Notes under the pieces: model-generated
Told to the model about the DNA's origin: nothing
The model's input: only the letters and a program-made list of their open reading frames with translations
Databases searched by the model: none
DNA from: an uncultured archaeon
GTDB taxonomy: Archaea > Asgardarchaeota > Thorarchaeia > Thorarchaeales > Thorarchaeaceae
Direction: 5' to 3'
Length of the DNA stretch: 32,000 nucleotides
NCBI GenBank assembly: GCA_964648855.1
Contig: CAZYLT010000007.1
Coordinates: 30,001-62,000 of the forward strand
Shown: piece after piece, positions 16,312 to 22,865 of the stretch
How positions within the stretch are numbered: the stretch's first letter is position 1
Layout: each line of letters starts with the position of its first letter
Translations under genes and position numbers: made by a program

Positions 16312-16923
16312 GTGCATGAGCTGCCTCGAAAAGCCAGGAATGAAAGGGAAACGCCTACTGAGGTGCGATTTGAATGCATCGAATGTGGGGAGTGCTGTCG
16401 GCATGAGCAGATTCTGGTGACTGTGAATGGGAGGGATATTGCTAGGCTGGCTTATGCTCTGGGTTTATCTGCAAGTCAAATGATGCGAGCTCTTGATTTC
16501 TATGTGGTTCCCGAGGACGAAGCAATTCCGATGGGGCTTCAAGATACGCCATCAGTATTGACGGAAAAGGGACCTGCGTATCCTGCGCTTAAAGTATTGG
16601 AAGATGACTCTTGCGTATTCTTGAAGGACAATTTATGTATGGTTCATCCTGTTCGACCTAGTGTATGCCGGAGTTTCCCATTTGTGTTTGAAAGAGTTGA
16701 CGGCGACATGAAATGGGGTCTTCATGCCTTGGTTGAGATTTGCCCCGGCATGGGACGGGGTGATCTCGTGACTGAAAAAGAACTTGGGGCTATCGGGGCT
16801 GCATTCCTGGAAGAGTGGAGTCTGTACCGTGAGTTTGTTGATGAATGGAACATTGAACGAAACACTCACTCTGCTGTTGGTTTCATTCGAGCAATTCTAG
16901 AAGACCCTCGTTTTTCCACCTAG
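16312..16923 (+). CDS. YkgJ family cysteine-cluster (CxxCxxCC) protein
   Basis: FECIECGECC, CVFL...CMVHPVRPSVCRSFPF, CPGMG. Confidence 0.9.
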   Translation: MHELPRKARNERETPTEVRFECIECGECCRHEQILVTVNGRDIARLAYALGLSASQMMRALDFYVVPEDEAIPMGLQDTPSVLTEKGPAYPALKVLEDDSCVFLKDNLCMVHPVRPSVCRSFPFVFERVDGDMKWGLHALVEICPGMGRGDLVTEKELGAIGAAFLEEWSLYREFVDEWNIERNTHSAVGFIRAILEDPRFST

Positions 16924-17919: not shown

Positions 17920-18102
17920 GCTATCACAAACTCAAGAGTGTCTATGCAAATTTCTAGAACCCTTTGAATCTTCATCTGATTCAATGCGACTAGATGATTG
18001 CACAACCAATTGGATATACTCGTGTGACCTCGTAGCACATGTAAGAAATTGTCTTTTTCATTTCTTCTCTTATTGAACACTTGGAGAAACCTGACAAAGA
18101 CA

Positions 18103-19020
18103 TCAGGTAGACTTCATTATATCCAGTATATTCCCGAAAAAGTGGTCAATGGTCATGCTTCTCTCAACATACTCGTCCATTCTATCGGCAATCTCGTTTT
18201 TCTTATTCTTTCTATAAGATGTACCTCTATCTGACATGATTATTGTGGAAACAACATCATTAATTTCATAGATGCTTCTCGCGCTATTGAGAATATGGTA
18301 GAGCATTCTTACCAATATTCTTCGATTCTCAGTGCCCCTAATATTCAAGACCTGGCTATAGAATTGGAATTGTAGACGATCAAGTGTTTCCATGTGGCTG
18401 GACAGAGTCTTAAGCCATTCTCCATCTTCTTCTTTTTCTTCTATGTTTCTTTGAACGTTGTGCCAGAATTTCTGTTGTTCGAGGAGGTCTACAAGATATG
18501 CTCTTACGATTCCGAAGTAGTCAATATCTTCTTCATCCTCAACTGAGCTTAACTCACTGAGATTCACAGCAATTTTCAGAGAAAACTCATCGAGGTATCT
18601 CTTGATCGAATCAAATTGCTTCTCCTCAGACATTACCAAAGCGAGAAGAATACCATATATGCAAGTTGCACAGTCAAGAGTCGGTTGAATCTCGCCAATG
18701 AAGTAGAGCCTGAGTGCGGTCATCAGGTCTTCTGACGTTACATCCCTTCCATGAATGCGAATAGGCCAGCCCTGAGATAGACAGTAGACTCTGCCTTCAT
18801 CCGTATATATGGACATGTAGCATGTTTGTCCATCGTCGCATCTGAAGCGGTCTATCTGCTCCATAGTCGGATCCGTACCAAGAATATCTGTGCCCAGTGT
18901 CATAGGCTCAATATCTATTATATCATCATCATTAACGCAGAGAATTTCGCCTTTAAAATCCCTATAACAGGGGCAGAACCCGAATGCCTTTGGTTCTTTC
19001 ATTATGCCTCTTTTCCCCAT
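18103..19020 (-). CDS. Uncharacterised Cys/His-rich protein, paralog B
   Basis: CPC..LCVNDD..CY..VYCLSQGW..RIHG..CATC; collinear with the upstream ORF over its full length. Confidence 0.85.
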   Translation of the reverse strand: MGKRGIMKEPKAFGFCPCYRDFKGEILCVNDDDIIDIEPMTLGTDILGTDPTMEQIDRFRCDDGQTCYMSIYTDEGRVYCLSQGWPIRIHGRDVTSEDLMTALRLYFIGEIQPTLDCATCIYGILLALVMSEEKQFDSIKRYLDEFSLKIAVNLSELSSVEDEEDIDYFGIVRAYLVDLLEQQKFWHNVQRNIEEKEEDGEWLKTLSSHMETLDRLQFQFYSQVLNIRGTENRRILVRMLYHILNSARSIYEINDVVSTIIMSDRGTSYRKNKKNEIADRMDEYVERSMTIDHFFGNILDIMKST

Positions 19021-19036
19021 TCAAGATTCATGTTTT

Positions 19037-20011
19037 TCACAATCTTCCGAGAATTTGAAGGATGTTTCCGAAGTTATGCTCAATAGCTCTGGCCTTTCTT
19101 TTATAGTTTAAAAATATAGTCTGTTCTTCATGGCATATTTTCTTCTCAATAAATTCTTGTGAATTGATTCTGGTATGTAGGTCCGAATTGAGTGCAAGAA
19201 TCCTGGAAGATGTATCTAGAATGAAATGAAGTACCTTGATCACGAGGTGGAAATCCGAAATGTTTCTCAGGAGGAGAACCTGGCTGTAAAACTGAAATTC
19301 AAAACGGGAGAGTTTCTCCCTATCCGAAATCAAATCCAATATCCATTTCTCAGCTTCTTGTTTCTCGAGATTCTTCTGGATTTCCATGTATTGATTCTGC
19401 TGATCCTGTAGCTGAAGAAGGTATCCTTGGATAATGTCAAATGGGTCCATTTCTTCTCCATTTTGCTCAGCCTTCTCTACTGTCTCCATCTGCTCGTCTG
19501 TTTCACTCAGGTTAATTGCCACTTTGACAGAAAACTCATCAACGTATCTCTTGATCTCTTCCATCTTCTCCTCTTTAGACATAACATCCGTAAATGATTC
19601 TCCCAGAGTTAGGAGGAACTTGTACAAACAATCACTACAGAGTTCTGCACTGGCAGATTTGTCAGTTGTTGAGAGGAATTTCATTGCGTCCTTGAGCTCA
19701 TCTGCTTTGACATCCTTCCCATGTATCCTAAGATTCCAACCCTGTGAAACGCAATATACTTTATTGTCAGGATAATTGGCATATATACAGAGATAACAGA
19801 GATTTCCCTTGTTGGCCTTCTCTTTTTCTAGTGATTCTTTCGTAGGATTGAAACCAAAGAGAGATGGGTCGATTTCCATGACATCAAGTTCCAAAATGGT
19901 GTCGTCGTTGACACAGAGTTGCTCATCACCAAAGACCTTGAAGCATGGGCAGCCACGAATAACTCTAACAGTCTTTGGTGGTTCTATTTTGTCCTTGACA
20001 CCTAAGCCCAT
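19037..20011 (-). CDS. Uncharacterised Cys/His-rich protein, paralog A
   Basis: CPC..LCVNDD..CY..VYCVSQGW..RIHG..CSDC; ATG 20011 has an AGGAG RBS 9 nt upstream. Confidence 0.85.
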   Translation of the reverse strand: MGLGVKDKIEPPKTVRVIRGCPCFKVFGDEQLCVNDDTILELDVMEIDPSLFGFNPTKESLEKEKANKGNLCYLCIYANYPDNKVYCVSQGWNLRIHGKDVKADELKDAMKFLSTTDKSASAELCSDCLYKFLLTLGESFTDVMSKEEKMEEIKRYVDEFSVKVAINLSETDEQMETVEKAEQNGEEMDPFDIIQGYLLQLQDQQNQYMEIQKNLEKQEAEKWILDLISDREKLSRFEFQFYSQVLLLRNISDFHLVIKVLHFILDTSSRILALNSDLHTRINSQEFIEKKICHEEQTIFLNYKRKARAIEHNFGNILQILGRL

Positions 20012-20270
20012 GAATGGTTTCTCCTGACGGGAAAGCAAGAGTGGAGCCCACACCAGCTAAATTGTCTATATAGTTATAGGAATTCAGGTAGATACATTGA
20101 TAGATTGGAATTTCTACAGAATAGATTCACTCGTAACTCACAAGATGAGAAGACCATAATGAACGAAATTCAACCTCTTAGACGTCATTCATTGCCTATT
20201 CACAAATAAAATTCAATCTCAACTTGGTTCTGTAGCTTCTTTTTCTGCATAAATGAAAGGTGGGGTGGAC

Positions 20271-20332
20271 ACTCAGCCCTCATAGGTTCGTGATCTTTCT
20301 CTCACGAAGGCGGTCCTACGTCTGGACTGAAT
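20271..20332 (-). other. Long bulged RNA hairpin starting immediately after the RHH gene stop codon (3' UTR structure or terminator)
   Basis: Nested stems AUUCAGUCC/GGGCUGAGU, CGUAGG/CCUAUG and UUCGUGA/UCACGAA. The G-U pairs form only on the minus strand. Confidence 0.55.
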
Positions 20333-20473: not shown

Positions 20474-20677
20474 TTTTTCCACCAATTATCTTTCTTTGAA
20501 GGCTCCCCGCAGTAGTACGTCGAGCCTACCGAGGTATTCATCTAAGTAACACCTGGGTCATACACAAATATGGAGGTTAGTAATACTAGGTAGATACCAC
20601 CGTCAGGGAAAAAACGCGGCTGAAAGAAACATAGTTTTTTAGTGGTAGAAACCATCATCCCCATACAGCTGTTAGGA

Positions 20678-20701
20678 AATGAGTTATAACCATCACTCAT
20701 T
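20678..20701. promoter_or_regulatory. Inverted repeat enclosing a TATA-like element upstream of acd
   Basis: AATGAGT-N10(TATAACCATC)-ACTCATT. Confidence 0.4.
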
Positions 20702-20744
20702 GCCCCAAAGCTCGAATCTAACCGTCAGAAGGTTGTGTAGGAAA

Positions 20745-22865
20745 TTGGACAGACAAAAAGGCATTGACGTAATGTTCAATCCGAAATCGGTAGCAGTGAT
20801 TGGCGCATCAGCAACAAAGGGAAAGCTTGGCAACGATGTGATGCGGAATCTGATCGATAGCGGATTTGACGGCAGAATTTATCCAGTTAATCCAAGAGCA
20901 GGTGAAATTCTTGGACATCAAGCATATAGAACTGTGAACGATATCGCTGGCGATGTTGATATGGCCGTCATAGTTATTCCTGCTAAATACGTTCTCGATG
21001 TTGTCAAGCAATGTGCTGAGAAAGAAGTTAAGGCTCTGGTAGTTATAACAGCCGGATTCAAAGAGATAGGACATGAAGGAGCAGAGGCCGAAAAAGAAAT
21101 CGCAAAAGTTGCAAAAGAAAACGGGATGGTGATGTTAGGTCCAAATTGTCTTGGCATAATTAACACTCATGCGCCCTATAATGCTTCATTCTCAGCTGGG
21201 ACGCCCCCAAAGGGGACTATTGCATTTGCATCTCAGTCTGGTGCTCTGATGACAGGCATCCTAGACTGGAGTCTAATGGAGAGAATAGGATTCTCCAAAT
21301 TCGTCAGTTTAGGAAATAAGGCACAACTTGATGAAGCCGACTTTATCGAGGCATTTGGAAGAGACCCTGACTCAACATTTGTGTTGCTTTACATTGAATC
21401 TGTGGTTGATGGTCGAAAATTCATGGATGCTTGCAAGGACGTTGTCCAGAAAAAGCCCATATTCGTGATTAAATCTGGAGTAAGCGTGGCTGGTGCAAGA
21501 GCTGCATCATCTCACACAGGATCTCTTGCTGGTAGCGACACTGCTTACAATACGGCATTCAAACAATCAGGCGTAAGCCGCGCAACTAGCATGGCTGAGC
21601 TCTTCGATATAGCAAATGTATTTGATGATATGCATCTCCCCGCCGGGAATAAAGTTGCAATCATCACCAACGCAGGTGGGCCAGGCATTATCACGACTGA
21701 TGCGTGCGAAGCGCATGGATTAGATATCGCCGAACTCTCTCAGAACACAGTTGAGTTACTTCGAGAGGAGCTTCCTCCCGCAGCAGCAGTCTACAATCCG
21801 ATTGATGCGCTTGGAACTGCTCAACCGGAAGACTATGCGCTTTGTACAGAGGCAGCTCTACGAGATGAGAAGGTTGACTCAGTAATTGTATTGGTTACTC
21901 CACAGGCCATGACGAAAGAGGCAGAAACCGCCCAAGTGATTGTTGATGCTCATAAGAAATATCCCGACAAGCCATTGCTTGCTGTATTCATGGGTGGCAA
22001 CTCGATGGTCTATCCAAGGATTGTCCTGACCGACGGCGGTATTCCCGTATTTGACTTTCCCGAGCGTGCTGTCAATGCGTTAGCTGAGCTCTACCAATAT
22101 GTCTTGAATAGAGACAGTGTGAAAGACGAAACAATCCCCAAGTTTAAAGCTGACACTGAAAGAGTGACGGAAATCATTCGAGAAGTTCGTGAAGACGGTA
22201 GACGTGTCTTGCTTGGTAGTGAGGCTCATGAAATCGCTGAATGCTACGGAATTCCTGTTGCCAAGATAAGCCTCGCAACTAGCGCGGAAGAAGCCACCAA
22301 AATGGCAGAGGAACTTGGTTATCCCGTAGTGCTAAAAATTGCCAGTCCTGATATTGTCCATAAGAGCGACATTGGGGGCATCAAGGTCGGTCTTGAAACG
22401 CCTCGACAAGTAGAAGCGGCATTTCTTGAAATCGTTGATAACGCTCGGAAACATATGCCCAAAGCCATCATCTATGGTGTGGATGTGCAGGAGATGGCAG
22501 AAGAGGGAAAGGAGCTCATTATTGGTTGTTCCAGAGACGTTCAGTTTGGCCCTCTCATCATGTTTGGAGCCGGAGGCATATTTGTAAATTACTTGAAAGA
22601 TGTTGCTTTTCGACTCGCTCCTATGACAAGAAGCGATGCCAGCGAATTAATGAAAGAAACCAAAATTGGTACTTTGCTGGAGGGTGTCAGAGGGGAACCA
22701 CCAAGCGACATTGTGGCGATTCAAGACACTATCCTAAGAATTAGTCAGCTTGTTACTGATTTTGAAGAGATTGTTGAACTCGATATCAATCCCGCCTTTG
22801 CATACGAGAAAGACAAAGGTGTATCTGCTGTCGATGTCAAAATTACAATTGGAGGAGAAAACTAG
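20745..22865 (+). CDS. acd: Acetate/acyl-CoA ligase (ADP-forming), fused alpha-beta
   Basis: FNPKSVAVIGAS, GPNCLG, SQSGA, SLGNKA, AASSHTGSLAG (phospho-His), TNAGGPG, ATP-grasp domain with HKSDIGG and ELDINP. TTG 20745 preferred as start. Confidence 0.93.
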   Translation: MDRQKGIDVMFNPKSVAVIGASATKGKLGNDVMRNLIDSGFDGRIYPVNPRAGEILGHQAYRTVNDIAGDVDMAVIVIPAKYVLDVVKQCAEKEVKALVVITAGFKEIGHEGAEAEKEIAKVAKENGMVMLGPNCLGIINTHAPYNASFSAGTPPKGTIAFASQSGALMTGILDWSLMERIGFSKFVSLGNKAQLDEADFIEAFGRDPDSTFVLLYIESVVDGRKFMDACKDVVQKKPIFVIKSGVSVAGARAASSHTGSLAGSDTAYNTAFKQSGVSRATSMAELFDIANVFDDMHLPAGNKVAIITNAGGPGIITTDACEAHGLDIAELSQNTVELLREELPPAAAVYNPIDALGTAQPEDYALCTEAALRDEKVDSVIVLVTPQAMTKEAETAQVIVDAHKKYPDKPLLAVFMGGNSMVYPRIVLTDGGIPVFDFPERAVNALAELYQYVLNRDSVKDETIPKFKADTERVTEIIREVREDGRRVLLGSEAHEIAECYGIPVAKISLATSAEEATKMAEELGYPVVLKIASPDIVHKSDIGGIKVGLETPRQVEAAFLEIVDNARKHMPKAIIYGVDVQEMAEEGKELIIGCSRDVQFGPLIMFGAGGIFVNYLKDVAFRLAPMTRSDASELMKETKIGTLLEGVRGEPPSDIVAIQDTILRISQLVTDFEEIVELDINPAFAYEKDKGVSAVDVKITIGGEN

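Follow-up and report, generated by a model that had tools for sequence, protein, structure and literature searches.

What do two adjacent genes encode that resemble each other from end to end, have a set of cysteines in common and could at first be assigned to no family? The pair, here called A and B, lies in a stretch of 32,000 nucleotides from an uncultured archaeon of the Thorarchaeaceae (GenBank assembly GCA_964648855.1, contig CAZYLT010000007.1, positions 30,001 to 62,000), which is referred to as the window. On the same strand, both genes follow a short gene for a ribbon-helix-helix (RHH) protein that resembles the regulator CdrS. An original prediction, made from the letters of the sequence, had taken the pair for an old duplication producing a heterodimeric metalloprotein with a C5-H-C2 ligand set. 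In the present analysis, A and B were found to belong to a family with three groups of paralogs (A, B and C) that is near-universal in Thorarchaeia. Its N-terminal domain, with six invariant cysteines, occurs only in Asgard archaea and is fused to Arf-like GTPases in another Asgard lineage; neither its sequence nor its predicted fold has a known relative. It is this domain, its predicted fold and its genomic wiring that are claimed as novel, and a new mechanism is not claimed as demonstrated.

A BLASTP alignment of A and B is collinear from end to end (35% identity over 322 columns, E 3e-62) and includes all motif blocks on which the proposal of tandem, co-oriented paralogs had been based. Seven cysteines are common to the pair as proposed, whereas the single common histidine proved to be two, His97 in the RIHG block and His312 in HxFGNIL. 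The family is present in 81 of 87 Thorarchaeia genomes and in 17 of 17 genera. Its members there fall into three classes, namely B-type proteins of about 320 amino acids, A-type proteins of about 296 amino acids, and more divergent C-type proteins with E-values of about 1e-50 against a profile of A and B. When classes were assigned by length and E-value, B-type genes were counted in at least 68 of the 87 genomes and A-type genes in 26, belonging to four genera. Orthologues of A are 45–53% identical, with one closer protein (P0121) at 93%. The genome of the window (G000) carries exactly two family copies, A and B, and in a quick IQ-TREE tree these lie inside the A and B clades, respectively (Shimodaira–Hasegawa-like approximate likelihood ratio support 96% for A, 86% for B and 99% for C). 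The tree supports A, B and C as separate clades older than the Thorarchaeia genera, in agreement with the old duplication that had been suspected.

The homologs do not always occur as pairs, and the identity of the partner varies. In 29 of the 30 B loci of other genomes, the order of genes is cdrS-like, C, B, and the thirtieth locus is cut by a contig end. The order cdrS-like, B, A without C was found only in the genome of the window and in a congener (G076), and no remnant of a C paralog was detected in the gap of about 320 nucleotides (20012–20332) between the cdrS-like gene and B. Wherever A occurs outside the genus of the window, it is located on another contig, far from B. At least two genomes of good quality (G009, 97% complete, and G014, 91% complete) have B as their sole family gene; in G014 the unit of cdrS-like gene and B is flanked by the same kind of genes as in the window. 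B is the constant member, and its tandem partner is usual, changes identity and can be missing. Heterodimer formation as an obligate feature is weakened because A is not linked to B elsewhere, most genera pair B with C, and B-only genomes exist.

The conserved residues were examined in two alignments, both in the numbering of B. Invariant positions among 31 A and B sequences include C21, C33, C72, C87, H97, C125, C128 and H312. A broader alignment of 65 homologues, comprising A and B together with C-type, stand-alone and fused forms, retains C21, C33, C72, C87, C125, C128 and also Pro22 without exception, and Asn35 and Tyr130 are almost always kept. Cys23, the second cysteine of the CPC motif, is replaced in 9 of the 65, and only 23 of them have His97. 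Thus, six cysteines of the proposed C5-H-C2 set held in the wider family and two of its ligands did not, which makes the set a Cys6 core with lineage-specific extras. Since the six cysteines are invariant, it is plausible that the A/B family is a metalloprotein family.

The six-cysteine domain has a length of about 125 amino acids, and a model calculated from 65 diverse sequences (predicted local distance difference test, pLDDT, 87.2; predicted template modelling score 0.81) is composed of six strands and four helices, two of them short and two longer. A model of the whole of B from 31 sequences was mediocre (pLDDT 67), as only its helical half, and not the N-terminal domain, was modelled confidently. 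In the domain model, a loop between two strands carries C21 and C23, C33 is part of a strand, C72 and C87 are found where strands end, and C125 and C128 are placed at the beginning of the last helix, a predicted layout that is common for structural zinc. Comparison of the domain model with the PDB gave no match (best Foldseek E 0.16), in a type of search where small metal-held domains score poorly. The model is consistent with a new fold, although it may yet be related to a solved zinc-binding fold such as the treble clef, the zinc ribbon or Mss4/TCTP.

The original view that the family is unassigned was supported by searches of several kinds. Scans of A, B and the 65 homologues one by one against Pfam and NCBIfam gave nothing above noise, and neither A nor B was matched by PADLOC or PHROGs. 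A sequence profile search of the PDB gave no match (best E 1.4), and a search of the ESM Atlas with one homologue (P0113) gave no usable match. A HMMER pass over 1.84 billion representative proteins returned only 62 hits, and all named homologues come from Asgard archaea, mostly Thorarchaeota, with further ones from Heimdall-, Loki- and Freyarchaeota and from records of the 'Asgard group'. Literature searches on Asgard Arf/Rab GTPases and on CdrS turned up no account of the six-cysteine domain.

Across Asgard archaea, the domain was found in 140 of 400 genomes with a patchy distribution, as it is present in all 12 of 12 genomes in some families and in none of 135 in another. By its occurrence it is a mobile, Asgard-only module. 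Apart from A, B and C, it is found alone in proteins of 120–150 amino acids and at the C-terminus of Arf-like GTPases (P0270 and P0282, annotated as 'ADP-ribosylation factor family protein' in Heimdallarchaeota), with two more such Arf-like fusions in a single genome (G168). In other fusions the domain follows a multi-pass membrane domain, precedes a Trx/KaiB-like fold or precedes a different helical tail. Longer fused forms of 568–2000 amino acids were looked for and none was found, which is weak evidence. The genome G168, a member of another Asgard family, has four architectures of the domain, namely the two Arf-like fusions, the multi-pass membrane fusion and the different helical tail (L045, L048, L049 and L050). 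Stand-alone domain genes have large neighbours of 1,440–1,484 and 1,030–1,127 amino acids and an Ig-like one of 1,223 amino acids, which are mutually unrelated across families. The protein of 1,440–1,484 amino acids, with an N-terminal TrmB-type helix-turn-helix and apolipoprotein-like helical repeats, is encoded directly before the stand-alone domain gene (L064:6828-11282, L065:1934-6256), an adjacency seen in two genera of one other Asgard family and absent from other families.

The C-terminal half, of about 180 amino acids, appears from the model to be a generic helical bundle, and fold searches with the whole-B model gave only matches of that generic kind. Two known families were considered, and neither was supported. 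For PhoU (PF01895), A scored 14.1 bits (E 0.065), below the gathering cut-off of 23.5 bits, and B gave no hit, while the Foldseek alignment of the whole-B model with 3l39 (E 0.04, template modelling score 0.24–0.33) is within the range of unrelated helical bundles. A hemerythrin-like di-iron protein of the ScdA/YtfE type was rejected, as the conserved set of His/Glu di-iron ligands is missing.

Upstream of B, the RHH protein matches Pfam RHH_1 (E 5.2e-8, 33 bits, cut-off 20.5) and has the extent of an RHH fold of about 50 amino acids. Its best NCBIfam model is CdrS (NF058555; 50 bits, E 2e-13), at a score below the equivalog cut-off of 100 bits, and the match to the aCcr1 model is weak (E 4e-4, 20 bits, cut-off 60). 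The CdrS-like regulator proposed to precede the pair on the same strand is therefore present. Four CdrS-like RHH paralogs are encoded in the genome of the window, and each is followed directly by another gene set (in the window and on contigs C4, C10 and C12; L052–L054). The copy on contig C4 abuts or overlaps ftsZ, which is the canonical pair, and is 66% identical to the copy in the window; the other two precede an acidic protein of 202 amino acids and a membrane protein with an ABC ATPase. On the other side of the latter paralog, a divergent Rab-like GTPase gene was observed. The RHH protein of the window scores 78–93 bits against the family-linked RHH proteins of other genera and 65 bits against the ftsZ-linked copy of its own genome, and because it is closer to the former, the gene represents a dedicated orthologous lineage. 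Of 36 loci, 33 have a GTA(N1-2)TAC palindrome upstream of their cdrS-like gene, compared with 3.8 on average and 10 at most in shuffled sequences; three of these loci are duplicates from the same genomes. Within the genome of the window, such a palindrome precedes three of the four cdrS paralogs, including the window copy, where it reads AGTATTACT. Autoregulation of the RHH gene via this putative box is plausible.

From these observations, the reading that we favour, tentatively and with a confidence somewhat short of even, is that of an Asgard-specific A/B/C family in which an interaction module stabilised by metal is carried on an oligomerising bundle, with ties to the CdrS cell-division circuit and perhaps to small GTPases; the binding of metal, the formation of oligomers, control by the RHH protein and a cellular role of A and B are what we infer. 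The six-cysteine domain would be held by its invariant cysteines, most likely with zinc and possibly in two sites or as a binuclear cluster. With B at a fixed chromosomal place behind a dedicated CdrS paralog and its CdrS/aCcr1-type promoter palindrome, the RHH protein may autoregulate and thereby set when the unit is expressed. B and the neighbouring paralog (A here, C in most genera) would associate through their helical bundles into homo- or hetero-oligomers, and the six-cysteine domain, stabilised by metal, would dock a partner, for which a small GTPase is the best candidate. On this view, the family would belong to cell-division or membrane-remodelling circuitry and not to metabolism.

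Several points weigh against this interpretation. Six cysteines fall short of two classical four-ligand sites, and a hetero-oligomer cannot be essential because B stands alone in G009 and G014. Function cannot be read directly from synteny with a CdrS paralog, and other CdrS paralogs of the same genome precede other gene sets, such as an ABC transporter and an acidic protein. In the gap that separates the family genes from the cdrS-like gene, the palindrome occurs in 3 of 36 loci compared with 4.6 in shuffles and is not enriched; together with the hairpin and the TATA-like element that lie before B in the window, this makes co-regulation of B and A with the RHH gene, by direct control or co-transcription, no more than a possibility. 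Stand-alone domain genes do not have conserved neighbours across Asgard families, and no GTPase neighbour was found at 19 of 23 A loci. Finally, the sequencing runs that contain the locus are four DNA runs from one microbial-mat study, with no RNA run among them.

A dedicated regulator or effector of small GTPases (similar to a GTPase-activating protein, a guanine nucleotide exchange factor or a guanine nucleotide dissociation inhibitor) overlaps with the favoured reading and, taken by itself, is considered rather unlikely. The GTPase bound by the domain would be Arf- or Rab-like; in the Heimdall-type fusions it would be part of the same chain (in cis), and in Thorarchaeia a separate protein (in trans). 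The four Arf-like fusions described above speak for it, and so does a Ras/Rab-like GTPase gene that abuts A on its upstream side in G053 and G030 and is found within 0.6–1.6 kb of it in G042 and G017; the A-adjacent GTPase has 194 amino acids, a Pfam Ras match of 3e-40 and the same orientation (L040:6941-7525, L042:8196-8780). Surveys of Asgard small GTPases also mention fused domains of unknown function (PMC10933270, PMC11914678), and the six-cysteine domain is not described in them. However, a GTPase directly upstream of A was ruled out as a general rule (3–4 of 23 loci), most family genes have no GTPase neighbour, no ArfGAP or other regulator model matches, and the domain is fused to non-GTPase partners as well. 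A redox or Fe-S sensor is given a similarly low probability. The six or seven cysteines, for which zinc is preferred here, would then bind an Fe-S cluster or form redox-active thiols, the bundle would relay the signal, and the pair would report the oxygen or redox state in anaerobic mat archaea.

Two further explanations are much less probable. A small RHH gene upstream of two genes of unknown function could be read as an antitoxin followed by effector proteins, and weak matches of the RHH protein to ParD-type and phage-repressor models fit a toxin-antitoxin or defence cassette of this kind. Nevertheless, such a cassette is very improbable for a core gene set that keeps its syntenic place in 81 of 87 genomes, is neither patchy nor mobile, has no PADLOC match and is not atypical in its content of guanine and cytosine, and whose RHH protein has CdrS as its best model and an aCcr1-like box in its promoter. 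A divergent TFIIB/Brf-like transcription factor, suggested by the name 'TFIIB/Brf' in one Joint Genome Institute record of a homologue (P0021) and by a similar length of about 320 amino acids with an N-terminal cysteine region followed by helices, is hardly credible. No TFIIB, TF_Zn_Ribbon or cyclin model matched any of the 65 members at E-values up to 1, and fold searches gave no cyclin-fold match. Moreover, the N-terminal domain has 125 amino acids and a beta-rich model instead of a ribbon of 35 amino acids, and it is followed by a single bundle of long helices.

A more far-reaching version of the favoured metal-stabilised module, regarded as quite doubtful, would make the six-cysteine domain an unseen metal-binding fold and an Asgard-specific docking or regulatory module for Arf/Rab-like GTPases, with A, B and C coupling CdrS-timed division to GTPase-driven membrane remodelling. 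If true, the logic by which GTPases and effectors work in eukaryotes would have had a forerunner of this kind in prokaryotes. No known organisms are more closely related to eukaryotes than Asgard archaea, and to our knowledge little is known about how they divide and how their many small GTPases are wired. The family matters in this respect as a core gene of Thorarchaeia behind a paralog of a division regulator, with a domain that reaches Arf-like proteins elsewhere in the Asgard archaea.

The positions of the features are given in Table 1. The RHH gene, B and A follow one another in this order as three co-oriented genes on the minus strand, and outward-facing plus-strand neighbours bracket the trio. 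AGGAG is located 9 nucleotides upstream of the start of B; the open reading frame extends to a GTG at 20053 (19037..20053, 338 amino acids), and the product of 324 amino acids is identical to a database protein (P0001). For A, the true start is likely the ATG at 19002, giving 299 amino acids, because AAGAGG precedes this codon and P0121, an orthologue with 93% identity, is equally long. The gap between B and A amounts to 16 nucleotides between the open reading frames and to 34 with this start. A TATA-like CTATATAG is found at 20066-20073, about 55 nucleotides upstream of B, and the site of the GTATCTACCT copy next to it is not conserved in other genera. Further away, between an aminotransferase-like gene and the epimerase-like gene, an open reading frame of 203 amino acids on the plus strand (16312-16923) has CIECGECC near its N-terminus and more cysteines later, and from its sequence looks like a small Fe-S- or zinc-chelating protein.

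Table 1. Features at the A/B locus, in positions of the window (aa, amino acids; nt, nucleotides; ORF, open reading frame).
Feature	Position	Strand	Remarks
Epimerase-like gene, 323 aa	16948-17919	+	convergent with the RHH-B-A trio
Inverted repeat, 11-nt arms, 91% complementary	18050..18102	.	immediately behind the A stop; separates A from the epimerase-like gene
Gene A (paralog A, 305-aa ORF)	18103..19020	-	from ORF listing
Predicted helical bundle of A	18106..18630	-	collinear with B; common KRYxDEFSxKxA, FQFYSQVL, HxFGNIL
Six-cysteine N-terminal domain of A	18631..18996	-	aligns with the domain of B and with stand-alone domain proteins
Gene B (paralog B, 324 aa, core family member)	19037..20011	-	from ORF listing; start ATG 20011
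Predicted bundle of five long helices in B (residues ~146-321)	19040..19576	-	
Six-cysteine N-terminal domain of B (residues ~14-140)	19592..19972	-	
GTATCTACCT	20086..20095	-	just upstream of the TATA-like CTATATAG before B; second copy at 20588-20597 abuts the AGTATTACT palindrome
Hairpin TTCGTGA-N8-TCACGAA, then T-rich stretch	20287..20308	-	directly 3' of the cdrS-like stop; read from sequence
cdrS-like RHH gene, 46 aa	20333..20473	-	Pfam RHH_1 and NCBIfam CdrS; GGTGG before ATG 20473; ORF extends to TTG 20485
Perfect 9-bp palindrome AGTATTACT, aCcr1/CdrS-box-like	20579..20587	.	~100 nt upstream of the cdrS-like gene
ADP-forming acetyl-CoA-synthetase-like gene	20679-22865	+	divergent from the RHH-B-A trio

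Among known systems, the arrangement is closest in outline to the cdrS-ftsZ2 locus of Halobacteria and other archaea, the canonical setting of CdrS (PMC7439475). As in that locus, a CdrS-type RHH gene of about 50 amino acids lies directly upstream on the same strand. In contrast to it, the genes downstream belong to the six-cysteine family and are no tubulin homologues, so that the position upstream of ftsZ2 is not shared, and the gap of about 320 nucleotides with its hairpin and TATA-like element separates the RHH gene from B. A second comparison concerns aCcr1 of Sulfolobales, a small cell-cycle regulator of the RHH type, which binds promoters at a 9-bp palindrome built around GTA.TAC and has cdvA as its known target (PMC9976878). 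The box upstream of the cdrS-like gene is a palindrome of this GTA.TAC type, known here from its letters, whereas the match of the RHH protein to the aCcr1 model is weak and the box is missing before the family genes in most genomes. The helical half differs from PhoU-like and hemerythrin-like (ScdA/YtfE) bundles in that their metal-ligand sets are not conserved in the A/B family. The ArfGAP zinc finger (PF01412; CxxC-x16-CxxC with a catalytic Arg) gave no hit in 65 members and has a different cysteine spacing, a mismatch that is compatible with a GTPase-directed function. In eukaryotes, several structural zinc modules dock on small GTPases, namely the ArfGAP zinc finger, Rab-binding domains of the FYVE/Rabphilin type and Mss4. 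The six-cysteine domain resembles these modules in being cysteine-rich, in a size within about 50–125 amino acids, in its link to GTPases of the Arf/Rab type and in a CxxC at the N-terminus of a helix.

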